Assembly (NCBI GenBank): GCA_947624505.1
Contig: CANQKO010000004.1
Location: 4,666-68,665, forward strand
Direction of reading: 5' to 3'
DNA: 64,000 nucleotides
Source of the DNA: an uncultured Bacilli bacterium
GTDB taxonomy: Bacteria; Bacillota_I; Bacilli_A; RF39; UBA660
Shown here piece by piece: positions 36,675 to 50,242 of this stretch; the stretch's first letter is position 1, and each line of letters begins with the position of its first letter. The notes below the pieces were generated by a model. That model saw nothing but the letters and a program-made list of their open reading frames with translations. It made no database searches and was not told the origin of the DNA. Both the position numbers and the translations under genes were made by a program.

Positions 36675-37298
36675 TTAAAATTTACGATATAAGCCTATAG
36701 CAACTCCTAAAATGGTACAATTACTTAATATAATTGGTTCCATTGTATCATTTTCTGGTTGTAATCTGATATGGCCATTTTCTTTATAGAATCTTTTTAG
36801 CGTTGCTTCATTTTCCATAGTCATTGCAACAACTATATCGCCATTTTTGGCATTGCTTTGCTTTTTAACAATAACATAATCACCATCAAAGATACCAGCA
36901 TTAATCATACTTTCACCACTTACGTGAAGAGTAAATACCTCTTCTTTAGCGGGAATCAAAGATGCCGGTAAATCAAAAAACTCATTAGGTTGTTCAATGG
37001 CAGTAATGGGACTACCGGCTGTTATTTTACCAAGAAGAGGAACTTTAACAACATCTTCATTAGTTTTTAAATATTCATTTTCACATAATATTTCAATTGT
37101 TCTAAATTTGTTACTTGTTGTTTTTATATAACCTAATTGTTCAAGATTTTTTAAATGAACAAAGACTGTTGCGGGACTTGATAATCCAACACCTTTACAT
37201 ATTTCTCTAATTGCAGGTGGATATCCGTGTTCAGCCGTATATTTTTTGACATAATCTAAAATATCGTTTTGTCTTTTAGTTAATTCTTTAGTATTCAT
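36675..37298 (-). CDS. lexA: LexA repressor
   Basis: Winged HTH (IREICKGVGLSSPATVFVHLKNLEQLGYI), cleavage-site region, S24 peptidase motifs SGESMINAGI and ATLKRF. Confidence 0.95.
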   Translation of the reverse strand: MNTKELTKRQNDILDYVKKYTAEHGYPPAIREICKGVGLSSPATVFVHLKNLEQLGYIKTTSNKFRTIEILCENEYLKTNEDVVKVPLLGKITAGSPITAIEQPNEFFDLPASLIPAKEEVFTLHVSGESMINAGIFDGDYVIVKKQSNAKNGDIVVAMTMENEATLKRFYKENGHIRLQPENDTMEPIILSNCTILGVAIGLYRKF

Positions 37299-37629: not shown

Positions 37630-38421
37630 ATGGAAATAACTTCAATCGATAAAATAAAGAAAGCTTATTCTTTTAGCAATGAAAATTTAACTGCCTATCA
37701 AAACATTATTGATTTTAAAGGTAAAAATGTTTTATCAGTTGTGGGAAGTGGTGACCAATACTTTTCTTTTCTTCTTTTTGGGGCAAAAGAAATAGACTTG
37801 TTTGATAACAATTTGATGGCATTATATTATTTTTATTTAAAATATTATGCTATTATTTTATTAAACTATAAAGAATTTATTGATAGTTTTTATTATTATA
37901 AAAATACTCAGAAAAATTATAGTAAAATTAGAGATTGCCTCCCAGATGAAATAAAAACTTTTTTTGATGAGGTTTTAAAAAATAAGGTCTTAAACTCGTT
38001 ATTATATAAGCCTATTCCTTTATCAATTCATACTGATAATGTTGATAGAACAATTCCTTATTTAAAAGGTAAACGTTATTATGAATTAAAAGAATTACTT
38101 AAAAGCACACCTTTTCCCAATTTGTTTTTACATGATTTACGCGATTTATATGCATCATTAGATAGAAATTATGATATTATGATATTTTCTAATATATATG
38201 CTTATTTAAATATGGAAGTTAAAGCATATCGTCAATTTTTAAAAAAATATGAAAAATTTTTAAATGATGGTGGTGTTATTGAAGCTAACTATGAATGGAT
38301 ATCCTTTGAACGCGATTTTAAAAAGTATGGTTTTAAAAAACATTATGTTGATTCTGCCAATGATAAAATGATGGCTTTAAATGATAAAGATAATATCATA
38401 ACTTTAAAAAAACACTTTTAA
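37630..38421 (+). CDS. DUF3419 (BtaA-like SAM-dependent transferase fold) family protein, tentative
   Basis: VLSVVGSGDQYFSFLL...IDLFDNNLMALYYFYLK...LNYKEF matches my memory of the DUF3419 pattern (ItSaGcNaLdyll...aVDlNpaQ.aLLeLK...L.yeeF). Needs an HMM check. Confidence 0.45.
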   Translation: MEITSIDKIKKAYSFSNENLTAYQNIIDFKGKNVLSVVGSGDQYFSFLLFGAKEIDLFDNNLMALYYFYLKYYAIILLNYKEFIDSFYYYKNTQKNYSKIRDCLPDEIKTFFDEVLKNKVLNSLLYKPIPLSIHTDNVDRTIPYLKGKRYYELKELLKSTPFPNLFLHDLRDLYASLDRNYDIMIFSNIYAYLNMEVKAYRQFLKKYEKFLNDGGVIEANYEWISFERDFKKYGFKKHYVDSANDKMMALNDKDNIITLKKHF

Positions 38422-38569
38422 ATGAATGTTGCAAAATAACGCAAAAAGTTAAAAAAATAAGTTAGAAAGCAACAAATTAAACCAAAACATACTAATATAT
38501 TAAGATAAAATAAATATTAATTAATTGTTTTATTTGTAAATTAAGTTTATAATTATTATGAGGGATGAT

Positions 38570-39697
38570 ATGAAAAAGAAAATATTAGTGATGTATGCAA
38601 GATATGGTTCAGGACATAAAGCAATTGCGGAATATGTGGCATCATACATAGCTACTCATAATGATTATGAAGTAAAAATAATTGATATAACTGATTATGG
38701 TAATAAACTTGCTAAATTCACCATCAAGTTAATGGATTTTGTTTTAAATCATCATCAAGAATTTTTGTTCAATGTTGGTTATGAACTTGTTGATAATCGC
38801 ATATCATCATTTGGCAATAACAAACTAGTAAAAGGTTTGTACGATAATAAACTATTAAGAGAAGAAATAATAAACTTTAAACCGGATATTACTATTTCTA
38901 GTCATTTTTATTGTAGTAATTTAATAACTTATTATAATAAATTAGGCTTAATTAAAAGTAAATTATTAACGATTATTACTGATTATCGGGCTCACGAATT
39001 TTGGATTAGAAATAAAAATAGTGAAGATGGTTATATAGTTGGTAATAAAATAGTTAAAGAAGAATTAATAAAAAGAGGAGTCGATCATAAGAAAATATAT
39101 CCTTATGGTTTGCCTTTAAATATTACTAAAATAAATAATTTAGATAAAGAAGAGGTTATATATAAAAGATATAATATTAAAAATAATCAAAAAGTTTATT
39201 TATTTTTTGGTGGTTCATCGGGGGGAAGTATGTATTATTTTAACTATTTTAAAACAATTTGCAAATTAGAATTAAATAAAGATATCATTTTTATAAGTGG
39301 AAAAAATACTAAATTAAAAAATGCTTGTGAAAAATATGTTAAGAAAAATAATATTAAGAATATTAAAGTATTAGGATATTCAACTGATGTTTTAAATTTA
39401 ATGAAAATAAGTGATTTAGTAATTAGTAAACCTGGTGGGGCTACGGTAACCGAATGTTTAGAAATGAAAGTGCCAATGCTTTTAGTACCAGGAATTGGGG
39501 GTCAAGAAAAATATAATGCAAGATTTGTGGCCAGAAAAAAATATGGCATTAAAGTAAGAGGAACTTTTTCTTTTAAAAGAAATTTAAAAAGATTAGAAAA
39601 TAATCCTTCTTTAATAAGAAAGATGGAAGAAAGATTAAATACACTAGATAATAATGATTCGATTGTTAAAATAAATAATTTAATTAAGAAGATGTAG
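38570..39697 (+). CDS. GT28 MGDG-synthase-family diacylglycerol glycosyltransferase (UgtP-like)
   Basis: KILVMYARYGSGHKAIAEY N-terminus and SKPGGATVTECLEMKVPML...GQEKYNA C-terminal motif. Confidence 0.75.
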   Translation: MKKKILVMYARYGSGHKAIAEYVASYIATHNDYEVKIIDITDYGNKLAKFTIKLMDFVLNHHQEFLFNVGYELVDNRISSFGNNKLVKGLYDNKLLREEIINFKPDITISSHFYCSNLITYYNKLGLIKSKLLTIITDYRAHEFWIRNKNSEDGYIVGNKIVKEELIKRGVDHKKIYPYGLPLNITKINNLDKEEVIYKRYNIKNNQKVYLFFGGSSGGSMYYFNYFKTICKLELNKDIIFISGKNTKLKNACEKYVKKNNIKNIKVLGYSTDVLNLMKISDLVISKPGGATVTECLEMKVPMLLVPGIGGQEKYNARFVARKKYGIKVRGTFSFKRNLKRLENNPSLIRKMEERLNTLDNNDSIVKINNLIKKM

Positions 39698-39706
39698 GTG
39701 GTATTA

Positions 39707-41668
39707 ATGAGTAAAATAAACGAAAAAATAATTAATAATATCAAAATGCTTAGTTTAGATATGATTTATAAAGCGAGAAGTGGTGATGCTGGAATTGTTT
39801 TTTCAGCTGTTAATGTCTTTTATAGTTTATTTATGGATCATTTAATATTTGATCCTAATGATATTTCTTTTATTAATAAAGATCGTTTATTAGTATCAAA
39901 TAGATTATTACCTCTTTTTTATAGTTGTAATTATTTATTTTATAAAGATATGCCTTTAGATGATTTAAAAGATTATAAAACATTTAAATCCAATATCACT
40001 GGTAATAATAGAATGAGCAAACTTAATCCAATTAGTAGTTTAATTAATAGTGATATTGTCTCATCATCAGTAGGAGTATCTTTAGGAAGAGAATATTTAA
40101 ATGGTTTACTAACTATTGAAGATAGTAAAAATAAATTAGTTAATTTTAAAACTTATTGTATTATTACTTTAGATGAGCTAATGAGTGGCATCGCTTATGA
40201 AGCAATGAGTTTTGCTAGTATTCAAAATTTAAATAATTTAATCTTTATAGTTATCAAAGATGAAGTAGGGAAAGATAGTAGTAATAAAGAAACATTTAAT
40301 GAAGATTTAATCGATCGTTTCATTGCTCTAAATTATAATGTAGAAGAAATAAATGATAATTTAAATTCGATTGATGGAGCATTAATTGATGCTAAAAACA
40401 GTAAAAAGCCATCAATCATTATTGTTAAAAGTATTTATGGTAAATCATCTAAAATTGAAAATAGCAATAAATTATATAATAAACCTTTAAGTGAAGAAGA
40501 GATGACCGAATTAAGAAGTAAATATGGTTTAGCTAATCCTTTTGATGTGTCTTTAGAAGTAATAAAAGAAATAAGAAAAAATATTAGTAAAAGATTAAGT
40601 AAATATTTAATTAATTATCAAACACTTAAACAAGAAGGAATGAAAGATTTAAAAATAAAAGAAATAATAGATTTTTTAACGAATAAAAAAGTAAATGTGG
40701 AAATTAATCCCGCTAATATTAAAATTAATGAAAGCTATGAAGAAGAATTAGTAAAAAGTAATAGTAAAATTTTAAATCTAATTGCTAATAAAAGTCCATT
40801 TATAATTTGTGCCAGTGATGATAATTTCTTATATACTTTAGCAAGTATTAAAAAATCTGGAATTATGTCTAAAGAAAATCGAACCGGAAGAAATATCTTA
40901 TTTGGTAATCGTGTATTAGCTATGGGAGGGGTGTGTTATGGTCTTGCTAGTCTCGGCTTTAAAGTTTTTGTTAGTACTCCTTTAATTAATGAAAGCTTTT
41001 TAAAAAATACGCTGCGTTTATCAACTCTTACTAATGTTGATCTTAACTTTATTTTTACTCAAGATAGTTTTACTAATTCCTATTTAGATAATGAGTTTTT
41101 TGCAAGTAGCGAAATAAATGATTTAAGAAGTATTCATAATTTAGTGTTATATAGGCCTTGTGATATTAAAGAAATAATTGGGGTTTATAGTACTATATGT
41201 AAACTTAATAAACCATCTGCTTTAGTTATCGGTAGTGAAGTAGTAAATGTTTTAAAAGGAACACATGAAAAATATGTTTTAGCAGGAGCTTACCGAGTAA
41301 AAAAAGAAAGCGATGATTTGGTGGATGCAATAATTGTCGCAACTGGTAGTGAAGTATCTCTCGCCACAAATATTATTGAAGAATTAAAACAATATGATTT
41401 AAATATTCGTCTTGTTTCTTTAGTTTCCTCAACTTTATTTGAATTACAAAGTGAAAAATATCAAAATATGTTACTTCCTAAAGACATTAAAACTTTTACT
41501 TTAGAATTTGGTAATCCAACTTATTTAGAAAAATACGCTACTAGTAAAGATTATGCTTTGGGAGTTAATGAATTTTTTGTTGGGGGTACTAAAGAAGAAA
41601 AATTAAATTATTATCATCTTAATAAAGATGCCATTAAAGCTAAAATAATTGATTTATTAAAAAAATAA
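39707..41668 (+). CDS. transketolase homolog with degenerate cofactor and catalytic motifs (probable pseudoenzyme)
   Basis: Colinear with Bacillus Tkt over its full length, but the motifs are replaced: SGHPG to SGDAG, SAGHGS to SNRLLP, GDGDLMEG to TLDELMSG, YDSNDISLDG to IKDEVGKDS, GVREFAMG to GNRVLAMG, THDSIAVGEDGPTHEP to TQDSFTNSYLDNEFFAS. Confidence 0.8.
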   Translation: MSKINEKIINNIKMLSLDMIYKARSGDAGIVFSAVNVFYSLFMDHLIFDPNDISFINKDRLLVSNRLLPLFYSCNYLFYKDMPLDDLKDYKTFKSNITGNNRMSKLNPISSLINSDIVSSSVGVSLGREYLNGLLTIEDSKNKLVNFKTYCIITLDELMSGIAYEAMSFASIQNLNNLIFIVIKDEVGKDSSNKETFNEDLIDRFIALNYNVEEINDNLNSIDGALIDAKNSKKPSIIIVKSIYGKSSKIENSNKLYNKPLSEEEMTELRSKYGLANPFDVSLEVIKEIRKNISKRLSKYLINYQTLKQEGMKDLKIKEIIDFLTNKKVNVEINPANIKINESYEEELVKSNSKILNLIANKSPFIICASDDNFLYTLASIKKSGIMSKENRTGRNILFGNRVLAMGGVCYGLASLGFKVFVSTPLINESFLKNTLRLSTLTNVDLNFIFTQDSFTNSYLDNEFFASSEINDLRSIHNLVLYRPCDIKEIIGVYSTICKLNKPSALVIGSEVVNVLKGTHEKYVLAGAYRVKKESDDLVDAIIVATGSEVSLATNIIEELKQYDLNIRLVSLVSSTLFELQSEKYQNMLLPKDIKTFTLEFGNPTYLEKYATSKDYALGVNEFFVGGTKEEKLNYYHLNKDAIKAKIIDLLKK

Positions 41669-41733
41669 AATCTCCGACATAAACTGACATTTATTTTAAT
41701 GAATGTTTTATATAATATCTATAAGGTGATATT

Positions 41734-42150
41734 ATGCGTAGTTTTTATATTTTTAAAATCAAAAGAGAAATAAGTATTTTAACAAGAGAAATACCTTACA
41801 ATTTATATAAAACAATTGATAATTTATATTATTTAGATACTAACAATATTGATGTATCATTTCAAGTTTATAAAGATTTATTTGATACTTTTGATATTAA
41901 TTATATGAATAAAAGAATATATAATTTATTTAAAAGTAATAGATATTATACTTATGAAAATAATATTCATAAAATAGAAAATAAATATCGTCCCGAAAAG
42001 ACAATCTTAAAAGTTTACAAATCACATTTATATATTAAAAGTGATGCAATAAATCCAACTCTTTTAGTTAATTATTTAATGAGTGATAATCTTTTTGTTT
42101 GTGATTTTAAAAATAAAGATTATTTTTGGTTAAATGAATTTGTGAGGTAG
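41734..42150 (+). CDS. sirA: SirA-like sporulation inhibitor of replication (tentative)
   Basis: 138 aa directly after tkt, as in B. subtilis (tkt-sirA). N-terminus FYIFKIKRE and C-terminus FVCDFKNKDYFWLNE resemble SirA YYTYLIKEE and FLAMDFNSKRYGWLNP (recalled from memory). Confidence 0.5.
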   Translation: MRSFYIFKIKREISILTREIPYNLYKTIDNLYYLDTNNIDVSFQVYKDLFDTFDINYMNKRIYNLFKSNRYYTYENNIHKIENKYRPEKTILKVYKSHLYIKSDAINPTLLVNYLMSDNLFVCDFKNKDYFWLNEFVR

Positions 42151-42197
42151 CTATAGCACAAAATATTATTTTATGTTAGAATTAAGAAGTGGTAAAG

Positions 42198-42830
42198 ATG
42201 AAATTTAAATTAAATGATTATATAATTGAATATGATATAGTTAGAAAAGATAATAAAAATCTTTATTTTCGTTTTGATGAAAATTGTCATCTTATTATTA
42301 CGGCTCCAAAATTTATTACTGATTTAGAAGTAAAAAATTTAATAACGAAAAATTCTAAAGCTATTTTAAAAATGTATGAAGATGCAATAATGCGCAGTGA
42401 TCGAGATGGTTTATTTAAGTATTTAGGTAAAAAATATAAAGTTGTTTTTGATAACCGTGTTAAAGACGTTTGCTTTGAAGATGATACTATAACTTGCTTT
42501 AGTGAAGAAGAATTAGATAAGTTTTATCATAGTGAATGTGAAAGAGTATTTAATGAAGAGATTAACATATGTCGAAAATGTTTTAATAATTTACCAGAAT
42601 TTAAACTAAGGATTAGAAAGATGAAAACAAGATGGGGAGTATGTAATACAAAAGATAAGATAATTACTTTGAATAGTGATTTATTAAAAAAAGATATTGC
42701 TTTAATTGATTATGTAGTGGTTCACGAAATGGCTCATTTTTATGAGGGTAACCATAGTAAGAATTTTTGGAAAATAGTTGAAGCAGTCATTCCAGATTAT
42801 AAAGAAAGACGTAAAAAATTAAAATACTAA
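42198..42830 (+). CDS. YgjP-like (DUF45/M48 family) metallopeptidase
   Basis: C-terminal HEMAHFYEGNHSKNFWKIVE zinc motif in the typical DUF45 layout. GTG 42189 is an alternative start. Confidence 0.75.
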   Translation: MKFKLNDYIIEYDIVRKDNKNLYFRFDENCHLIITAPKFITDLEVKNLITKNSKAILKMYEDAIMRSDRDGLFKYLGKKYKVVFDNRVKDVCFEDDTITCFSEEELDKFYHSECERVFNEEINICRKCFNNLPEFKLRIRKMKTRWGVCNTKDKIITLNSDLLKKDIALIDYVVVHEMAHFYEGNHSKNFWKIVEAVIPDYKERRKKLKY

Positions 42831-42883
42831 CGTCTTTTTCTTTTCATTAGTTTATTTTTTTGCTATTATATTAATAGTAGGTT

Positions 42884-44185
42884 ATGGATATGTACGAAGA
42901 ATATTTAAAAGATGTTTTTGATAATGCTTATGTGGTGGCATTACCTTTAGTAGAAAAAATTAATACCGTTAGTGTATGTCCTCATTGTGGTGGAACTTAT
43001 ATAGATACCTATTGCAAGTATTGCGAGCAAGAAAATAAGGATTTAGAAGAAAGTGTCGTTGCTTTAAAAACACTTTTATCACGTATCCAAGAAATGCTTA
43101 CCAATATTCCGGTAACGAAAACTAAATATCATCAATTTTTAACTCTTTTAGCTAAACTTAAAAATGTTAATCTTCCCGAAGTAGAAGAATTATTTTCAAA
43201 ATTTAATTATAATGAAGTTTTAGAAAAAATCTATTTAGATATTAAAAATAAAGGAATGAATGATATACCTTTAAACAAATCAGAAATTGATGTTAGTGAG
43301 GCTCTCGTTTATCGTAATTTAGATCGTAAAAAACGTAATAATAAGCAAGTTTTAGATTTAGTTAGTTTATATTTAAGAAAAATAATTATTAATTCTATAA
43401 AAGATGAAAAAGAATTAATCATAAGTTATGAGGCTTTTCAAACTCTAATAAAAGAATTTACCGAGGTAGAAATTAGTTACTTTTATAAGCAAGGTAGATG
43501 TCAAATTTTTGAAGGACCTATTTTCGAAAGAGATAATAGTGTTGTTTTAGGCTTGGCTGATTATAACTCTGTTTCTTTATCTGATATTGATATTAAAGCC
43601 TTTTATTATGATGGTAATAATTCATTACTTGAAACGATTTTTCACGAAATAAATCACGTAAGACAACAAGCTATAACTTATAAACAAAAAGCAGTTTCAG
43701 AGCTTGACTTATTACAAATAAAAGACCGTGTAATAGGACGTTATTTAAAAAATTATATTAATGAAAATTATGCCAATCTTTCTTATGAAATTGAAGCTTA
43801 CTATTGTGGTTTAAGAGATCAAAGACTAGCTTTAAATAGTATTGGAATTAATTTTAATCAAGAAACCAATTTGCGAGTGGAGAGAGATTTAGAAGCTTTA
43901 GCTAAAAAAATGTTAAATAAAGAAAGAACTTTAAATGGTAAGAGTATCGATATGGATCAAGAATTTGCCAAAATACTATCTACGCGTCCCCAACTCTTAA
44001 ATGAATATCCTTGTTTAAAAAGATTATATAAGTTAGAAAATAATGGTGTTGTAAGAAAAAGTGATGAAGAATTAACAAATGAATTAAAAGATATTTTAGC
44101 AAGTGGTATAAGTGAAGAAGAAAAACAAAAATATGTGACAATGTATGGAATTTATGGTATAAATGTGCTTGACTTTAAAAGATAA
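42884..44185 (+). CDS. hypothetical protein with N-terminal zinc ribbon and HExxH motif
   Basis: CPHCGG...CKYCEQ ribbon and internal FHEINHVRQQ. No family recognised. Confidence 0.55.
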   Translation: MDMYEEYLKDVFDNAYVVALPLVEKINTVSVCPHCGGTYIDTYCKYCEQENKDLEESVVALKTLLSRIQEMLTNIPVTKTKYHQFLTLLAKLKNVNLPEVEELFSKFNYNEVLEKIYLDIKNKGMNDIPLNKSEIDVSEALVYRNLDRKKRNNKQVLDLVSLYLRKIIINSIKDEKELIISYEAFQTLIKEFTEVEISYFYKQGRCQIFEGPIFERDNSVVLGLADYNSVSLSDIDIKAFYYDGNNSLLETIFHEINHVRQQAITYKQKAVSELDLLQIKDRVIGRYLKNYINENYANLSYEIEAYYCGLRDQRLALNSIGINFNQETNLRVERDLEALAKKMLNKERTLNGKSIDMDQEFAKILSTRPQLLNEYPCLKRLYKLENNGVVRKSDEELTNELKDILASGISEEEKQKYVTMYGIYGINVLDFKR

Positions 44186-44197
44186 AAATAGTATATT
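44169..44197 (+). promoter_or_regulatory. promoter of the type III TA locus (TTGACT-17-TATATT)
   Basis: TTGACT at 44169-44174, 17-nt spacer, TATATT at 44192-44197. About 24 nt upstream of the first repeat and overlapping the 3' end of the preceding gene. Confidence 0.55.
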
Positions 44198-44220
44198 AAA
44201 AATACATAAGAAATTATGTA

Positions 44221-44333
44221 AAAAAAGCGGTGATTCCAGCCATTAAATGGGAAACGAAAAAAGCGGTGATTCCAGCCATAAATGGGAAACGAAAAAAGCG
44301 GTGATTCCAGCCATAAATGGGAAACGAAAAAAG
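44221..44333 (+). ncRNA. type III antitoxin RNA: 3.2 head-to-tail repeats of 35-36 nt
   Basis: AAAAAAGCGGTGATTCCAGCCAT(T)AAATGGGAAACG at 44221-44256 (36 nt, one extra T), 44257-44291 and 44292-44326 (35 nt, identical), plus a 7-nt partial fourth unit. Sits between a promoter and a terminator, directly upstream of a ToxN/AbiQ-like gene. Confidence 0.8.
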
Positions 44334-44335
44334 TT

Positions 44336-44368
44336 GATTAGAGACTAAACTCTAATCTTTTCTTTTTT
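44336..44368 (+). terminator. rho-independent terminator between antitoxin repeats and toxin gene
   Basis: GATTAGAG-actaaa-CTCTAATC hairpin followed by TTTTCTTTTTT. Confidence 0.75.
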
Positions 44369-44418
44369 ATAAAAGTATTATATAATAAATATAGGTTTTA
44401 TAGAGGGGGAAATAATAA

Positions 44419-44937
44419 ATGAAAAATAAATTTAAATTAGTAATTGTAGATTCCAATTATTGTGATTATTTAAGACAATTTGATTATAAAGTGGCTTATA
44501 ATAAAGACGAAAAGTCATTAAGGCCTTTTGTTGGAGTTTTATTTACATTAAATGATATTGAATATTTTGCACCGTTATCTAGTCCAAAATTAAAACATCA
44601 AAAGATGCATAATACTATTGATTTTATTAAACTTGATGGTGGTTTTTTAGGAGCTTTAAATATTAATAATATGATACCTGTAAAAAAAGATAATTATGAG
44701 ATCTTTGAATTTCAAGAAGATTCTACTAATCTTAAAGATAAACAATATTATAATTTATTAAGAAAACAGTTGTTATGGCTTAATTCTAGATATCGTTATA
44801 TAAAAAATAAATCTTTAAATTTATATAATAGTTATTTAAATGATAAATTACCAATAAAAGTAAAAGAAAGATGTTGTAATTTCATATTGCTTGAAAAGAA
44901 ATGTTTAGAATATGAAAAAAGTTTTATCAAAGGATAG
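44419..44937 (+). CDS. ToxN/AbiQ family type III toxin endoribonuclease
   Basis: 172 aa. YCDYLRQFDYKV...RPFVGVLF...YFAPLSSPKLKH...NINNMIPV matches the conserved ToxN/AbiQ blocks (Y.EYLK.FD.KV, AFIGI, YLAPLTSPK, N...MIP). GAGGGGG RBS. Confidence 0.8.
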   Translation: MKNKFKLVIVDSNYCDYLRQFDYKVAYNKDEKSLRPFVGVLFTLNDIEYFAPLSSPKLKHQKMHNTIDFIKLDGGFLGALNINNMIPVKKDNYEIFEFQEDSTNLKDKQYYNLLRKQLLWLNSRYRYIKNKSLNLYNSYLNDKLPIKVKERCCNFILLEKKCLEYEKSFIKG

Positions 44938-44993
44938 TTGCTAAAATATGAGGATTTTAGTAAAATATAGGTAGTTATAAGGCGTGTGGTAAT

Positions 44994-45713
44994 ATGTTTT
45001 TAACAAGTATTAATAATGATAAAGTTAAATTTTGGGAAAAATTACATAATAAGAGATTTCGCGATATAAATCAGCTATTTTTAATTGAAGATGAACATTT
45101 AATTAAAGAAGCTTTAAAATACAATATAGTTAAAGAAATAATTACAACTGATGAAACCAAAACATATGCTATACCAACATATTATGTTAATGATAAGATA
45201 ATGAAAAAAATATCAAATCAAGAAAGTGGCGCTACAGAAATTGCTGTAACAGAGTTTTTAAAAACAAGAGAAATTTTAGGTAATATATTAGTCTTAGATA
45301 ATTTACAAGATCCTGGTAATTTAGGAACGATTATTAGAAGTGCTGTTGCCTTTAACTTTGACTCAATTATTTTAAGTGATAATTCTGTTGATTTATATAA
45401 TCCTAAAGTTGTAAGGGCTAGTGAAGGGATGTTATTTCATATAAATATTGTAAGATGTAATATCATTGAGTTTTTAAAAAAAATAGATAAAGATTATAAA
45501 ATAATTGGTACTGATGTTTTAAAGGGTAAAAATATAAAAGATATTAAGTTTAATAAATGTGCTATATGTATCGGTAATGAAGGTAATGGCTTAAGTAAAG
45601 AAGTGAAAGAATTATGTAATGATTTTGCTTATATTAAAATGAATGATAAATGTGAAAGCTTAAATGCTGGTGTTTCAGCAAGTATTTTAATGTATGAGGT
45701 AGCCAATGAATAA
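44994..45713 (+). CDS. TrmH/SpoU family RNA 2'-O-methyltransferase
   Basis: LDNLQDPGNLGTIIRSA, IGNEGNGLS, LNAGVSASILMYE motifs. Confidence 0.85.
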   Translation: MFLTSINNDKVKFWEKLHNKRFRDINQLFLIEDEHLIKEALKYNIVKEIITTDETKTYAIPTYYVNDKIMKKISNQESGATEIAVTEFLKTREILGNILVLDNLQDPGNLGTIIRSAVAFNFDSIILSDNSVDLYNPKVVRASEGMLFHINIVRCNIIEFLKKIDKDYKIIGTDVLKGKNIKDIKFNKCAICIGNEGNGLSKEVKELCNDFAYIKMNDKCESLNAGVSASILMYEVANE

Positions 45714-46197
45714 TTATTTATTAGTGGGAAAAATTATTAATACTTTTGGTATTAAAGGAGAAGTTAAAGTATTATCAGATTTTGAATATAAAGAAAGAAT
45801 ATTTAAAAATGGTTTTAGTATTTATATTGGGGAAGATTATAATAAAGAAGTTATAAATACTTATCGTGTTCATAAAAATTATGATTTATTAACATTTATG
45901 GGTTACACTAACATTAATGAAATATTAAAATATAAAGGTTTAAATATCTATATTAATAAAGATGATTTAAAATTACAAGATAATGAATACTTACTTAGTG
46001 ATTTAATTGGCTTAGAAGTCTATGATAATGCCTCTTTAATTGGGGTAGTTATAGATTATGAATTAAATAATACGGTGTTATTAAAAATTAAAGGTGAAAA
46101 AAATTTTTATATTCCTTTAGTAGATGAATATATTAAAAAAGTTGATTTAAAGAATAGAAAAATAATAACGAATGGGGGAAGTAATTTAATATTATGA
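45706..46197 (+). CDS. rimM: 16S rRNA processing protein RimM
   Basis: VGKIINTFGIKGEVKV N-terminus, PRC barrel, position upstream of trmD. Confidence 0.88.
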   Translation: MNNYLLVGKIINTFGIKGEVKVLSDFEYKERIFKNGFSIYIGEDYNKEVINTYRVHKNYDLLTFMGYTNINEILKYKGLNIYINKDDLKLQDNEYLLSDLIGLEVYDNASLIGVVIDYELNNTVLLKIKGEKNFYIPLVDEYIKKVDLKNRKIITNGGSNLIL

Positions 46198-46868
46198 AAA
46201 TTGATATTTTAACTCTTTTTCCTAATATGTTTCAGGGGTTTTTAACTGAATCAATTATTAAAAGAGCAATTCAAAAAGATTTAGTAGAAATTAATATAAT
46301 TGATTTTCGTGACTATTCTTTGGATAAGCATAAAAAAGTTGATGATACTCCTTATGGGGGAGGAGCAGGAATGGTTTTAATGTGTGAACCCGTTGTTAGG
46401 GCAATTGAAGATTTATGGGGTGATGATTCCCTTGTGATTCTTACTTGTCCACAAGGAAAAACCTTTAATGAAGGCATTGCCACTAAATTAAAAGAATATC
46501 ACCATTTAATTATTGTCTGTGGTCATTATGAAGGTTATGATGAGCGTATTAGAAATTTTGTTGATATGGAAATAAGTATTGGAGATTATGTTTTAACTGG
46601 GGGTGAAATACCCGCAATGGCCATTACTGATTCAGTGGTAAGATTATTAGATGGGGTAATTAATACGGAATCATCAACTTTTGATTCTTACACTGATAAT
46701 TTGCTTGATTATCCAACTTATACTAAACCCGAGAATTTTAGAGGGTTAAAAGTTCCCGAAATTCTTCTTAGTGGTAATCACGAAAAAATTAAGGAATATC
46801 GTAAATTAGAACAAATAAAAAATACGCAAAAAAGAAGACCAGATCTTTTGGAGAAGAAAAATGATTAA
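46194..46868 (+). CDS. trmD: tRNA (guanine37-N1)-methyltransferase TrmD
   Basis: ILTLFPNMF, DDTPYGGGAGMVL, CGHYEGYDERI, LTGGEIPAM motifs. Confidence 0.95.
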   Translation: MKIDILTLFPNMFQGFLTESIIKRAIQKDLVEINIIDFRDYSLDKHKKVDDTPYGGGAGMVLMCEPVVRAIEDLWGDDSLVILTCPQGKTFNEGIATKLKEYHHLIIVCGHYEGYDERIRNFVDMEISIGDYVLTGGEIPAMAITDSVVRLLDGVINTESSTFDSYTDNLLDYPTYTKPENFRGLKVPEILLSGNHEKIKEYRKLEQIKNTQKRRPDLLEKKND

Positions 46869-47226
46869 ATTAGAAGAAGTTAGTTGTAATTTTGAAATAG
46901 TAGAAATGCCCAATTTGGAAGGAATTACTCTAAATAAAAATAATGCTAAAATTACTATTTATGATAAAGAGATTATTGAAAAAGTAATTGATGAAAATTT
47001 TAATAAAAAATATCGGACTTTACTATATTTAATTATGAGTTTAAATGATAGCGAAGATACCACCGAAACAGATACGGAATTAGCTTTTTTAAAAATTGAT
47101 GATTTAAAAAATCATTTACTTAAATATTATAAATTTATTAGTAAAGATTTATTAGATAAATATTTAAGTATGTTGATGATTTTGGGGGAAAAAATCCCTT
47201 ATGTTGAAAAAAATCGCGGAAGATAA
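46861..47226 (+). CDS. hypothetical protein
   Basis: 121-aa ORF overlapping the trmD end. No family recognised. Confidence 0.5.
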   Translation: MIKLEEVSCNFEIVEMPNLEGITLNKNNAKITIYDKEIIEKVIDENFNKKYRTLLYLIMSLNDSEDTTETDTELAFLKIDDLKNHLLKYYKFISKDLLDKYLSMLMILGEKIPYVEKNRGR

Positions 47227-47301
47227 GTAAAAAAGATTGAATCTCCACCTAAAAATTTATATAATTATATTGGATATAGATTAAAGGTAGGGGATTTTTA
47301 T

Positions 47302-48159
47302 ATGAAAAAAAATAAGTTGGTTGGCACTATTTTAGGCCTTTGGGTTTTTGTTATTGCTCTTTTAGTAGGTAAAGTAGTATATGATGATGTTAAAAAGGTT
47401 AATAATCCTGCCTCAGTTGATAAAAGTATTCCTTTTAATGCTGTTGTAGGTAATATTGATGAAAAAAATGAAAAAGAAGAAGAGGATAAGACAGATAACA
47501 AGACGCAAAATAAAGAGGCATTAAATAATGAAAAAGCTGATAATGAAGAAAGTAAAATAGATAATGAAATAGCTTTAGTAAATCCAAAAGATGTAAATGA
47601 TAATAGGGAAAAAGTATTAGTTAAAGAAATATATGGAACGAAGATTTATGATGAAATAACTTATGCTCTTAAAAATGGTGAAAAAGTTAAAACGAGTTCG
47701 AAGAGAATAGTTGATGCTTCTAATTACAATGCTTCATTAAATGATTTAGTTAATGAGGCTTTAATTTTAATTAATAATAATGAATCTATTTATAAAGAGG
47801 TTTTAGATTATACAAATCTTTATCGTAATGAAGTAAATGTTTCTAAACTTACTATTGACTCAAAGCTAAATATCCTAGCTACAATTAGAGCTTTAGAAAT
47901 GGCTTATAGCAATAATTTTAGTCATACCCGTCTTGATGGAACTAACTGTACTAAGCTTGCGAAAGAGTTAGGCATATCTTTTAAAGTAATGGGTGAAAAT
48001 ATTGCTTATGGTTATAAAAATAGTTTAAGTGTTTCCAAGGGTTGGAAAAATAGTAAAGGACATTACGCTAATATGATAAATGCAAGTTATAATAAGATAG
48101 GAATTGGTTTATTTAACTTTAATGGTAATATTTATTGGGTTCAAATATTTAGTGATTAA
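47302..48159 (+). CDS. CAP/SCP (YkwD-like) domain secreted protein
   Basis: TM/signal anchor, low-complexity linker, C-terminal CAP domain (FSHTR, GENIAYG, GHYANMIN, YWVQIF). Confidence 0.75.
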   Translation: MKKNKLVGTILGLWVFVIALLVGKVVYDDVKKVNNPASVDKSIPFNAVVGNIDEKNEKEEEDKTDNKTQNKEALNNEKADNEESKIDNEIALVNPKDVNDNREKVLVKEIYGTKIYDEITYALKNGEKVKTSSKRIVDASNYNASLNDLVNEALILINNNESIYKEVLDYTNLYRNEVNVSKLTIDSKLNILATIRALEMAYSNNFSHTRLDGTNCTKLAKELGISFKVMGENIAYGYKNSLSVSKGWKNSKGHYANMINASYNKIGIGLFNFNGNIYWVQIFSD

Positions 48160-48534
48160 AATTTTTTTGATAATAATTTTTGGATAGGTGATTTATCCGA
48201 TGTATTAAATAATATTGATGAACATAAAAGCTCGTTACTTAACACGCCTTTATTTAATGCGTTTTTAAATGATTTTCGAAAATTAATTCCGTGCCATTTT
48301 ATTACTGGTAAAGTTTTATTAGCAAATAACTATTTATTAACGCATACCAATGGCGAATATTTAGGTATCAATCTTGATTACTCAAAAGAGCAACGTGAAT
48401 TTAAAAAAGAAATTATTAATAGTCTTGATAATCCTAGAGATAAGGAAAATGTTAGAAGATTATTAAAAGAAAGAAAATACTTATAATAAATTTCTGATTA
48501 TTGATATAATATTAAGTGAGCATTCAAAAATTAG

Positions 48535-48563
48535 TTGAAACCCACAGTAAGTTGTGCTATAAT
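48535..48563 (+). promoter_or_regulatory. rplS promoter (TTGAAA-17-TGcTATAAT) with about 85-nt leader
   Basis: TTGAAA at 48535-48540, 17-nt spacer, extended -10 TGCTATAAT ending at 48563. The leader could correspond to the Firmicute L19 leader, which I did not verify. Confidence 0.55.
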
Positions 48564-48650
48564 GTTTAGTGCCCAAAGGTATGTAATCCGCTTAAATAAT
48601 TTATTTTAATGATTACAGGTAATTTTATTTATAAGAAAGGAGTGTATCTG

Positions 48651-48992
48651 ATGGCTAATTTAGTTGATAAAATAAATGAACGTCAAATACGTAAAGACAT
48701 TCCTGAATTTCGTGTTGGTGACACAGTTCGTGTCGATGTATGGGTAAAAGAAGGGAAAAAAGAAAGAATCCAAGCTTTTGAAGGATTAGTAATTGCTAAA
48801 AAAGGTGGCAGTGTATCTGAAACTTTTTCGGTTCGTAAAACTTCATCAGGTGTTGGTGTAACAAGAATTTTTCCAGTCAATGCTCCCACTATTGATAAAA
48901 TAGTTGTTATCAAAAAAGGAATGGTTAGAAGAGGTAAACTTAACTTTATTAAGAAAATGCGTAAAGGCTATAAGGTTAAAGAAAGAAATTAA
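48651..48992 (+). CDS. rplS: 50S ribosomal protein L19
   Basis: MANLVDKINERQIRKDIPEFRVGDTVRVDVWVKEG...; AAAGGAG RBS before ATG 48651, so the upstream extension to 48609 is unlikely. Confidence 0.95.
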   Translation: MANLVDKINERQIRKDIPEFRVGDTVRVDVWVKEGKKERIQAFEGLVIAKKGGSVSETFSVRKTSSGVGVTRIFPVNAPTIDKIVVIKKGMVRRGKLNFIKKMRKGYKVKERN

Positions 48993-49019
48993 GGTAATTA
49001 ACCTTAATTTCTTTTGTTT
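48982..49019 (+). terminator. 13-bp stem hairpin overlapping the rplS stop codon (terminator/attenuator before lepB)
   Basis: AAAGAAATTAAGG-taattaa-CCTTAATTTCTTT followed by TGTTT. Confidence 0.5.
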
Positions 49020-49034
49020 AAAAAGGAGACTAGG

Positions 49035-49520
49035 ATGAAAATAATTAAAAGTTTAATACCATATTTAGTAATAATAATTGTGGTAATGATTATTAGAACG
49101 TTTATTGTAACTCCGATAATTGTGCAAGGCGGAAGTATGCAACCAACTTTATCTGGTAATGAGTTAATGATCTTAAAAAAATATGACACTAATTATAAAA
49201 GGTTTGATATTGTAGTTGTTAATAAAAGTGTCGAAGGTGATAATTTAATTAAAAGAGTTATCGGCCTACCGGGAGAAACAATTAGATATGATAATGAAAA
49301 ATTATATATCAATGATGAAGTTTTTGAAGATCCATATGCAAGTGGAGTCACTGGTACTTTTCAAAGTATAACTTTAGGTGAAGATGAATACTTTGTGATG
49401 GGTGATAACAGAACTATATCTCTTGATAGTAGGGTACTTGGTCCAATTAAAAAGGCGGAAATTGAGGGAACAGTTAATTTTATTATCTATCCTTTTAAAG
49501 AATTCGGTAACGTAAACTAA
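49035..49520 (+). CDS. lepB: signal peptidase I
   Basis: TM anchor, GGSMQPTL (catalytic Ser), KRVIGLPGE (Lys), GDNRTISLDSR. AAGGAG RBS 6 nt before ATG 49035. Confidence 0.9.
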   Translation: MKIIKSLIPYLVIIIVVMIIRTFIVTPIIVQGGSMQPTLSGNELMILKKYDTNYKRFDIVVVNKSVEGDNLIKRVIGLPGETIRYDNEKLYINDEVFEDPYASGVTGTFQSITLGEDEYFVMGDNRTISLDSRVLGPIKKAEIEGTVNFIIYPFKEFGNVN

Positions 49521-49573
49521 GTATAAAAATGCTTAGTTTTTATATATGATAGCAAGTATGAGGTGTAGTATTA

Positions 49574-50242
49574 ATGGAAATAGCGGATTTAAAAAAAGAA
49601 TATGATAAAATGCAAATTAAGTATGGTGCTAAAGAATTAGATTCAATCTATAATGGTGGCTGTGAAGAAAATCCCGATATATGTTTTGTCTTTATGAATC
49701 CAACCGGTAGAAATATTGCCAGTGATAAATCGTGGAAAGGTAGAAAATCTCCTTGGATAGGAACAAAAAATATTTGGAAATTATTTTATAAAGTTAATTT
49801 ATTAAGCGAAGATACATTTAAACAAATTCAAGAAAAGAAACCTAAAGATTGGGACTATGAATTTAGTGATAAAGTTTATGGAGAAATAGCTAGTAATAAA
49901 ATATTTATTACAAATTTAGGCAAATGTACTCAAATAGATGCAAGACCTTTAACTAATGAAGTATTAAAACAATATTTAATCTTGTTATTTAAAGAAATAG
50001 ATATCATAAACCCTAAAGTAATTATTACCTTTGGTAATCAAGTAAGCTCTATTATTTTAAATAGAAATATTTCTGTATCGGAAAATAGAAAAACTTATTA
50101 TGAAATAAATGTTAATAATAATATTTATAAAGTATATCCAGTATACTATCCTGTTGGTAATGGAATATTTAATATAGATAAAGCAATTGAAGATATCAAT
50201 TGGATAATAGATAACGAAATAAAAAATAAAGTAGCAATGTAA
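49574..50242 (+). CDS. uracil-DNA glycosylase superfamily protein (divergent motifs)
   Basis: CFVFMNPTGRN (motif A-like), ITNLGKCT, and C-terminal YPVYYPVGNG (motif B position). Family assignment is from memory. Confidence 0.5.
   Translation: MEIADLKKEYDKMQIKYGAKELDSIYNGGCEENPDICFVFMNPTGRNIASDKSWKGRKSPWIGTKNIWKLFYKVNLLSEDTFKQIQEKKPKDWDYEFSDKVYGEIASNKIFITNLGKCTQIDARPLTNEVLKQYLILLFKEIDIINPKVIITFGNQVSSIILNRNISVSENRKTYYEINVNNNIYKVYPVYYPVGNGIFNIDKAIEDINWIIDNEIKNKVAM

Follow-up and report, generated by a model that had tools for sequence, protein, structure and literature searches.

We have analysed a 64-kb window (the whole stretch of 64,000 nucleotides, from one contig of an uncultured Bacilli bacterium) and found that positions 44169-44937 of its + strand very probably represent an intact chromosomal type III toxin-antitoxin module of the ToxIN family. 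Such a module had been proposed in a preliminary description made from the letters of the sequence alone, and all of the elements named there were located where it had placed them. Along the + strand, a promoter-like site is followed by a leader hairpin, three repeat units bounded by A-tracts, a terminator-like hairpin and a full-length gene for a protein with the predicted ToxN fold, as listed below.

44169-44197, + strand: putative sigma-70-type promoter, TTGACT (44169-44174), 17-nt spacer, TATATT (44192-44197)
44204-44219, + strand: 5' leader hairpin ACATAA-GAAA-TTATGT, 6-bp stem with a GNRA-type loop, abutting the first A-tract
44220-44226, + strand: first A-tract (7 A), putative 5' processing site of unit 1
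44221-44256, + strand: ToxI-like unit 1, 36 nt, with one extra T (TRF; covariance model R1, 54.6 bits)
44257-44291, + strand: ToxI-like unit 2, 35 nt (TRF; R1, 43.6 bits)
44292-44326, + strand: ToxI-like unit 3, 35 nt, identical to unit 2 (TRF; R1, 43.6 bits)
44327-44333, + strand: partial unit AAAAAAG, the closing A-tract and putative 3' processing site of unit 3
44336-44357, + strand: terminator-like hairpin GATTAGAG/ACTAAA/CTCTAATC, 8-bp stem, followed by the T-tract TTTTCTTTTTT (44358-44368)
44403-44409, + strand: predicted ribosome-binding site GAGGGGG, read from the sequence, 9 nt upstream of the ATG
44419-44937 (stop codon included), + strand: toxN, a gene for a 172-aa putative endoribonuclease toxin of the ToxN/AbiQ family

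The four published criteria for type III loci (Blower et al. 2012, PMC3401426; Manikandan et al. 2022, PMC8860590) include a homologue of a type III toxin, a short palindromic terminator between the repeats and the toxin gene and, as a preferred but not strict feature, -35 and -10 elements upstream of the repeats. All four were found here, the promoter among them. The layout of promoter, repeats, terminator and toxin gene, to which the preliminary description had drawn attention, recurs in 83 of the 89 related loci in which we looked for an upstream tandem array (counts of terminators below refer to 77 of these loci, those of leader hairpins to 76).

The toxN product

The assignment of the 172-aa open reading frame (ORF) to the ToxN/AbiQ family had been based on short blocks of sequence, and it is borne out by the profile search that the preliminary description had recommended. 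The ORF matches the Pfam family ToxN_toxin with E = 1.1e-45 and 156 bits (cut-off 25) over positions 2-159 of the 159-position profile, with no Pfam match beyond this one, and the AbiQ model of PADLOC recognizes it at 8.6e-34. Among proteins of solved structure it matches by sequence the ToxN of B. thuringiensis (4ATO, 4.5e-24), of Pectobacterium (2XD0, 1e-13) and of E. coli (7D8O, 1e-11), and AbiQ (4GLK, 1.4e-9). An AlphaFold2 model built with 26 homologues (pLDDT 88.3, pTM 0.84) retrieved 4ATO, 7D8O, 2XD0 and 4GLK as the top four structures in a Foldseek search, with TM-scores of 0.74-0.80; the scores against CptN (4RMO) were 0.47/0.51 at 14% identity, and MazF-like toxins ranked below CptN. 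On the strength of sequence and predicted fold we regard the ORF as a clear member of the ToxN/AbiQ family of toxins.

The residues S54-S55-P56-K57 align with Thr52-Ser53-Pro54-Lys55 of the Pectobacterium protein (ToxN_Pa) and, in the pairwise alignment, R35 aligns with Lys33, so that equivalents were found for four of the five active-site positions of ToxN_Pa (Tyr29, Lys33, Thr52, Ser53 and Lys55). R35, S55, P56 and K57 are invariant among 26 relatives, and an Arg at the position of Lys33 is also present in clusters 4 and 5 of E. coli ToxN (PMC8860590). Comparison with the syntenic orthologue in locus L001, from a rabbit-gut metagenome-assembled genome (MAG), gave dN/dS of 0.21 over dS of ~0.77, which indicates that toxN has been under purifying selection.

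A conserved pseudoknot in the repeat units

TRF places the array at 44221-44333 with a period of 35, 3.2 copies, 98% matches and a score of 217, in agreement with the three head-to-tail repeats of 36, 35 and 35 nt and the 7-nt partial unit that had been read from the sequence. The array consists of three cores between four A-tracts, and this arrangement explains the recurrent figure of '3.2 copies', which is found exactly in 55 of the 83 related arrays. In unit 1, helix H1 pairs G44229, G44230 and T44231 with C44241, C44240 and G44239 (GGU with GCC), and helix H2 pairs TTCCA (44234-44238) with TGGGAA (44248-44253); written as RNA, the window H2 reads UUCC(A) against (U)GGGAA, and three consecutive G permit two registers. 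Because the strands follow each other in the order H1-5', H2-5', H1-3', H2-3', the helices are interleaved and the unit (35/36 nt) describes an H-type pseudoknot, the core of which is flanked by A-rich tails. ToxI_Pa and ToxI_Bt are likewise H-type pseudoknots with single-stranded tails, and units of the ToxI class measure 34-36 nt (PMC5086642). Crystal structures of such antitoxins also show base triplexes.

The array stands far above chance expectation. Covariance model R1, which encodes the H2 hairpin only and was trained on 13 units from other genomes, detected in the 64-kb window just the three units of the array, and in 640 kb from 80 loci of unrelated context just one true orthologous array and one remnant. 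For the analysis of covariation a MAFFT alignment of 59 units was rejected, as it contained no internal gaps and left the 3' halves out of register, and a model-based alignment (for H2, 114 distinct copies) was used instead. Pair 21-71 of H2 is occupied by U-A in 60 copies, C-G in 34, G-C in 9, A-U in 4 and G·U in 4, with two cells unpaired. The covariation score of this helix was reached in none of 500 column shuffles, all slid registers collapse, and RNAalifold recovers H2 independently; in some arrays both variants stand side by side, e.g. AUC...GAA and ACC...GGA in locus L048. H1 lies outside model R1. Of 95 distinct copies, 94, 95 and 95 have its three stacked pairs, respectively, despite variation at two positions (U·G 80, U-A 12, C-G 2 at one; G-C 89, A-U 6 at the other), including six compensatory double changes from G-C to A-U, a level that none of 2000 shuffles attained. 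Covariation of H1 (GGU with GCC) and H2 (UUCC with GGAA) extends across ~80 genomes. The preliminary description had suggested a covariance or repeat search for the unit in relatives, and such searches returned arrays in 83/89 loci and covariation for an H-type pseudoknot.

The columns of the A-run are at least 90% conserved across units of the relatives. Like the preliminary description, we interpret the A-tract as the probable site of processing by ToxN, by analogy with the specificities A/AAAA of ToxN_Bt and A/AAA of AbiQ (PMC5086642), both of which it fits.

Signals around the array

The promoter TTGACT-17-TATATT claimed earlier is present at 44169-44197. It agrees with the consensus at 10 of 12 positions, which is the joint top score in the region, and its -10 element ends 23 nt before the array. 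This predicted promoter overlaps the final codons of the upstream ORF, whose stop codon lies at 44183-44185. The orthologous locus L001 has TTGACA-17-TATATT, and locus L149, from a nearly identical genome and described below, has the same element with TTGATT as its -35 (TTGATT-17-TATATT).

The leader hairpin is identical in L001 and shows compensatory stem variants in L085 and L003 (e.g. ACACAA...UUGUGU). A hairpin with a stem of at least 5 bp that ends no more than 4 nt from the first A-tract is present in 60 of 76 loci, compared with 24% of shuffled sequences. To our knowledge this hairpin has not been described previously for ToxIN; it may act as a stabiliser of the 5' end.

The hairpin with a T-tract was also confirmed, at 44336-44368, with a fold energy of -9.2 kcal/mol (z = -3.7). 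A scan of the region returned three terminator-like sites, where 0.3 would be expected. A hairpin followed by a run of T separates array and ORF in 69/77 loci, and the exact core TAGAG-N-CTCTA, which starts a few nucleotides past the last A-tract, occurs in 49/77, in 46 of these with a 6-nt loop; the background is six matches in 1.24 Mb. The three outer pairs of the stem covary. A simple intrinsic terminator would not require a core so constrained in sequence. The element at 44336-44368 is presumably an attenuator, by which the balance between antitoxin RNA and toxin mRNA is set.

Over the segment that runs from the promoter to the terminator, the window and L001 agree at 187 of 201 nt (93%), whereas the synonymous sites of toxN differ with pS = 0.48, which makes the non-coding half the more constrained half of the module.

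Relatives and the gut subfamily

The toxN product has more than 1000 homologues in a large protein database, and relatives of the gene are encoded in at least 520 species-representative genomes, mostly of uncultured Bacilli, Clostridia and 'Tenericutes'. Periods of 34-41 nt characterize 78 of the 83 related arrays; the remaining five have 50-77 nt, and of these three alternate two types of unit, one contains a loop insertion and one is an unrelated 50-nt repeat picked by TRF. The alternating arrays are those of L046 (1251-1420), L085 (1238-1386) and L092 (1254-1401), whose TRF periods of 71-77 nt arise because two different ToxI-type units take turns in one array. The loop insertion is found in L083 (1177-1370), where units of 59 nt carry 23 additional nt between the 3' strands of H1 and H2, with both helices kept. 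In two loci, L003 (2047-3516) and L090 (504-2004), one complete ToxIN module follows another, in the order array, toxN, array, toxN; the arrays of L003 are built from different units, one of 35 nt x 4 and the other of 41 nt x 3.1.

The window module shares with a ToxIN subfamily from gut MAGs 51-77% protein identity, the ToxI consensus unit AAAAAAGCGGTGAATCCAGCCATTAAATTGGAACTT, arrays of 3.2 copies and the terminator core TAGAG-N6-CTCTA, and differs from it in detail, the window unit having AUUCC...GGGAA with an AACG tail and the subfamily consensus AAUCC...UGGAA with a CUU tail. Two of its members, L001 and L002 from rabbit-gut 'uncultured Bacilli' MAGs, are syntenic orthologues (77% toxin identity) and the only loci with the neighbourhood seen in the window. 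Since the other ~88 loci sit in different contexts, the module moves between genomes. An insertion site shared by the whole family was considered and rejected, as the neighbours in the window are common to L001 and L002 only.

More distant relatives of toxN occur on 180 plasmid records, and a few viral contigs encode distant ToxN relatives only, with identity of at most 46%. A search for phage-borne pseudo-ToxI with the conserved 18-nt core gave two single chance matches in high-GC coding DNA and no arrays, and this candidate was dropped.

Comparison with characterised systems

Among characterised systems ToxIN_Bt comes nearest to the window module, and ToxIN_Pa, ToxIN_Ec and AbiQ/antiQ come next, in that order. 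ToxIN_Bt (B. thuringiensis pAW63, 4ATO) provides the best match both in sequence (4.5e-24) and in fold (TM 0.76/0.78), and has the same layout and about three repeats (34 nt x 3.1 by TRF; 2.9 in PMC5086642). The order of segments in its RNA (A-tract, NN, GGUG, 2 nt, H2 5', H1 3', loop, H2 3', tail) is that of the window unit, with helices GGU/ACC and ACCU/AGGU; the unit of a C. botulinum plasmid follows the same order with CAGUG/CACUG and CCUC/GAGG. The A/AAAA cleavage specificity of ToxN_Bt (PMC5086642) fits the A6 tract of the window. The two systems differ in that the proteins are only ~35-36% identical, ToxN_Bt has T-S-R-N where the window protein has S-S-P-K, the RNA sequences are not detectably homologous, and ToxIN_Bt is plasmid-borne while the window module is chromosomal.

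ToxIN_Pa (Pectobacterium atrosepticum pECA1039; 2XD0, 2XDB, 2XDD) resembles the window module in fold (TM 0.75/0.80), in its 36-nt repeat, in the terminator before the toxin gene and in the aligned active-site motif, and differs in its 5.5 repeats and AA/AU cleavage (PMC5086642), in protein identity (26%), in Tyr29, which has no clear counterpart here, and in being carried by a plasmid of a Gram-negative host. The plasmid-borne AbiQ/antiQ (Lactococcus lactis pSRQ900, 4GLK) stands furthest from the window protein among the four relatives of solved structure (1.4e-9, 24% identity). It has a 35-nt repeat in 2.8 copies and cleaves at A/AAA, a specificity that the A-tracts of the window fit (PMC5086642), and its catalytic Ser51 (PMC5086642) corresponds to S54 of the window protein, a serine and not a threonine. 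Structured-RNA candidates found upstream of ToxN in human-microbiome Clostridiales and Leptotrichia (HMP2_3156, HMP2_5421 and HMP2_14852) have been proposed to be ToxI (PMC8040213); like the window RNA, they sit directly before ToxN in bacteria of the gut.

Genomic neighbourhood and a toxin-deleted allele

The module lies between the gene for a fast-evolving 433-aa protein and that for a SpoU-family methyltransferase, which is followed by rimM and trmD, with a YgjP-like gene nearby. The GC content is ~24% (measured over 38000-50000), and no compositional step or anomaly was found at the module. The 433-aa ORF (42884-44185, + strand), without matches in Pfam or PADLOC, has an N-terminal CxxC...CxxC pair and a HEINH (HExxH) motif; it is 36% identical to its orthologue in L001, where the flanks are 72-83% identical, and 94% to that in L149, where the flanks are 99% identical. 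Many relatives lack it, and there YgjP directly adjoins SpoU. In ten neighbours of the module PADLOC produced only weak CARF-like matches, with E ~1e-3, in one protein. A 206-aa protein encoded at 36675-37298 (- strand) has weak PADLOC matches of CARF/Csa3 type (E ~1e-3, 14-17 bits), which are probably not significant.

A search anchored on the SpoU gene returned 80 relatives, only one of which has toxN at this site. Locus L149 (contig CANRDM010000004.1, 3780-3941, corresponding to 44150-44937 of the window) has flanking genes 94-100% identical to those in the window and is effectively conspecific. Here the promoter, the leader hairpin, a single repeat unit (43.6 bits) and the terminator stem are still in place, but two repeat units and the whole of toxN are missing. 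After a stretch of 26 unrelated nt the match to the window resumes at 44935; the junction lies in a MAG. An empty site that predates insertion of the module was considered for L149 and rejected: the retained promoter, leader, unit and terminator stem mark it as a deletion derivative. Elsewhere on the same contig (587-1820; window 42151-42188), L149 has ~1.2 kb of extra DNA between the SirA-like and YgjP-like genes, which are adjacent in the window.

Evidence against the classification

Several results weigh against the reading of this locus as a ToxIN module. The region holds 14 promoter-like pairs of hexamers where shuffled sequence leads one to expect 12.3, so that the promoter match alone is weak evidence, and the element gains credibility only from where it lies and from being conserved in relatives. 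For Tyr29 of ToxN_Pa the alignment has a gap, and the window protein offers no clear equivalent; among the sequence and structural features of the ToxN clade, this is the one left without a match. A defence island was looked for and rejected, PADLOC having revealed no credible defence protein among the ten neighbours.

For the RNA, the sequences behind the covariation counts are related to one another, and their alignment had been fitted to H2. Folding with RNAfold gave the whole leader-array-terminator segment a stability not significantly above that of shuffles (z = -1.5), and single units did no better than shuffles (z = -0.3 to -0.7); this is expected, since an algorithm restricted to nested pairs cannot represent a pseudoknot, and RNAfold therefore lends the fold no independent support. 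An Rfam search of 43800-45200 at E <= 10 gave no matches to the repeat RNA, and at the gathering score Rfam (release 15) found nothing over the 64-kb window, with no recognised tRNA-independent RNA genes or riboswitches. Model R1 recognized neither ToxI_Bt (<= 6.5 bits) nor the C. botulinum ToxI. Kinship with ToxI_Bt is accordingly a matter of shared architecture and not of detectable sequence homology, and the window RNA is best described as a divergent ToxI-class antitoxin outside the curated families. Finally, transcription, processing of the RNA, toxicity, neutralisation and phage resistance are here inferences by analogy with characterised systems. The evidence from the sequences is indirect: for processing, the conserved A-tracts around each unit, and for toxicity with neutralisation, the purifying selection on toxN and the loss of the toxin before the antitoxin in L149.

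Proposed mechanism and biological role

If the module works as its characterised relatives do (PMC5086642, PMC3401426, PMC8860590), from which the following steps are drawn, most transcripts would stop at the terminator and supply an excess of repeat RNA, while read-through would supply the toxN mRNA. ToxN would cut the precursor within the A-tracts, most likely as A/AAAA in the manner of ToxN_Bt, to release, with 2'-3' cyclic phosphate ends, pseudoknots of 35/36 nt with single-stranded A-rich tails, each of which would bind two ToxN molecules head to tail and occlude their active sites, probably within a closed 3:3 ring. The conserved number of three units points to such a 3:3 complex, and does so only suggestively, since ToxI_Pa with its 5.5 repeats still forms one. 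Upon shut-off of transcription or turnover of the RNA, as may happen during phage infection, free ToxN would cleave A-rich cellular and phage RNAs, growth would stop and the infection would be aborted. The last step, which is suggested by family membership, is the least secure of the mechanism.

An alternative that deserves consideration, although we think it rather unlikely, is that the pair works as a type III system whose role is not phage defence: the module could be a selfish cassette for addiction or stabilisation, or could bring no benefit at the level of the host. Its position among housekeeping genes (YgjP-like, SpoU methylase, rimM, trmD), with no defence genes nearby, would agree with this, as would the structure of L149, where loss of the toxin first, with an antitoxin unit kept, is the expected course of decay of an addiction module; moreover, promotion of plasmid retention has been reported for ToxIN_Bt (PMC4615649). 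On the other hand, ToxIN_Pa and AbiQ confer abortive infection (PMC5086642, PMC3401426), polymorphism for presence and absence and the varied contexts of the ~88 other loci are equally typical of defence genes, and addiction and defence are not mutually exclusive.

It is very improbable that the locus is an inactive, decaying remnant with a catalytically dead or unexpressed toxin and relic repeats. The deletion of the toxin gene in a conspecific genome does mean that the module is dispensable, but in the window the ORF is full-length over the entire Pfam profile with all family-invariant residues present, dN/dS is 0.21 over a dS of 0.77, the non-coding part is 93% identical to that of L001, beyond the conservation of synonymous sites, and the units, two of them identical, have scores of 43-55 bits throughout.

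Still less credit can be given to the idea that the repeats act as DNA, as protein-binding iterons or a recombination-prone minisatellite unrelated to control of the toxin. Tandem 35-nt units could in principle bind a regulator, and the copy number does differ between strains (three in the window, one in L149), but compensatory changes keep two interleaved helices on one strand, the array always lies on the strand of the toxin between promoter and terminator, and the architecture of the unit is that of a crystallised antitoxin RNA. Membership in another type III family, CptIN or TenpIN, with which ToxIN has its gene layout in common (PMC3401426), can practically be dismissed, given the Pfam match to ToxN_toxin only, the TM-scores of 0.74-0.80 to four ToxN/AbiQ structures vs 0.47-0.51 to CptN 4RMO, and a 35/36-nt unit that fits the ToxI class (34-36 nt; PMC5086642).

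Within the reading as a ToxIN module, we put forward, as a long shot, that the leader hairpin and the TAGAG-N6-CTCTA core are functional parts of the antitoxin transcript and not generic signals and, separately, that the remnant in L149 is maintained as an 'orphan antitoxin'. The leader hairpin could, for example, shield the 5' end and fix the position of the initial cut, and binding or cleavage of the 3' hairpin as a response to ToxN could provide feedback on read-through into toxN. The orphan antitoxin could guard its host if the module were acquired anew or if a phage brought in a ToxN of its own.

Significance

The locus is a further example of a known system and leaves the understanding of type III modules unchanged. 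Motifs proposed as ToxI are already on record from gut Clostridiales, where they precede ToxN (PMC8040213), and the new points are minor: the gut subfamily is large and its RNA unannotated, a leader hairpin is conserved, the core of the terminator is constrained in its sequence, and an allele with the toxin deleted exists in nature. The expectation in the preliminary description that the RNA component would escape protein-centred annotation holds, the RNA having no Rfam match at E <= 10; the toxin does not escape it, and its relatives already bear the name 'type III toxin-antitoxin system ToxN/AbiQ family toxin' in public annotation. Since Rfam has no entry for the RNA, the antitoxin side of the module is overlooked in annotation throughout this subfamily (at least 520 genomes), and the covariance model and alignment obtained here could seed an RNA family. 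The window offers a clear-cut case of ToxIN on the chromosome of an uncultured lineage of gut Bacilli with very AT-rich DNA (~24% GC), and the natural allele of the conspecific L149, with the toxin deleted and one unit kept, provides a ready comparison for the function of the module.

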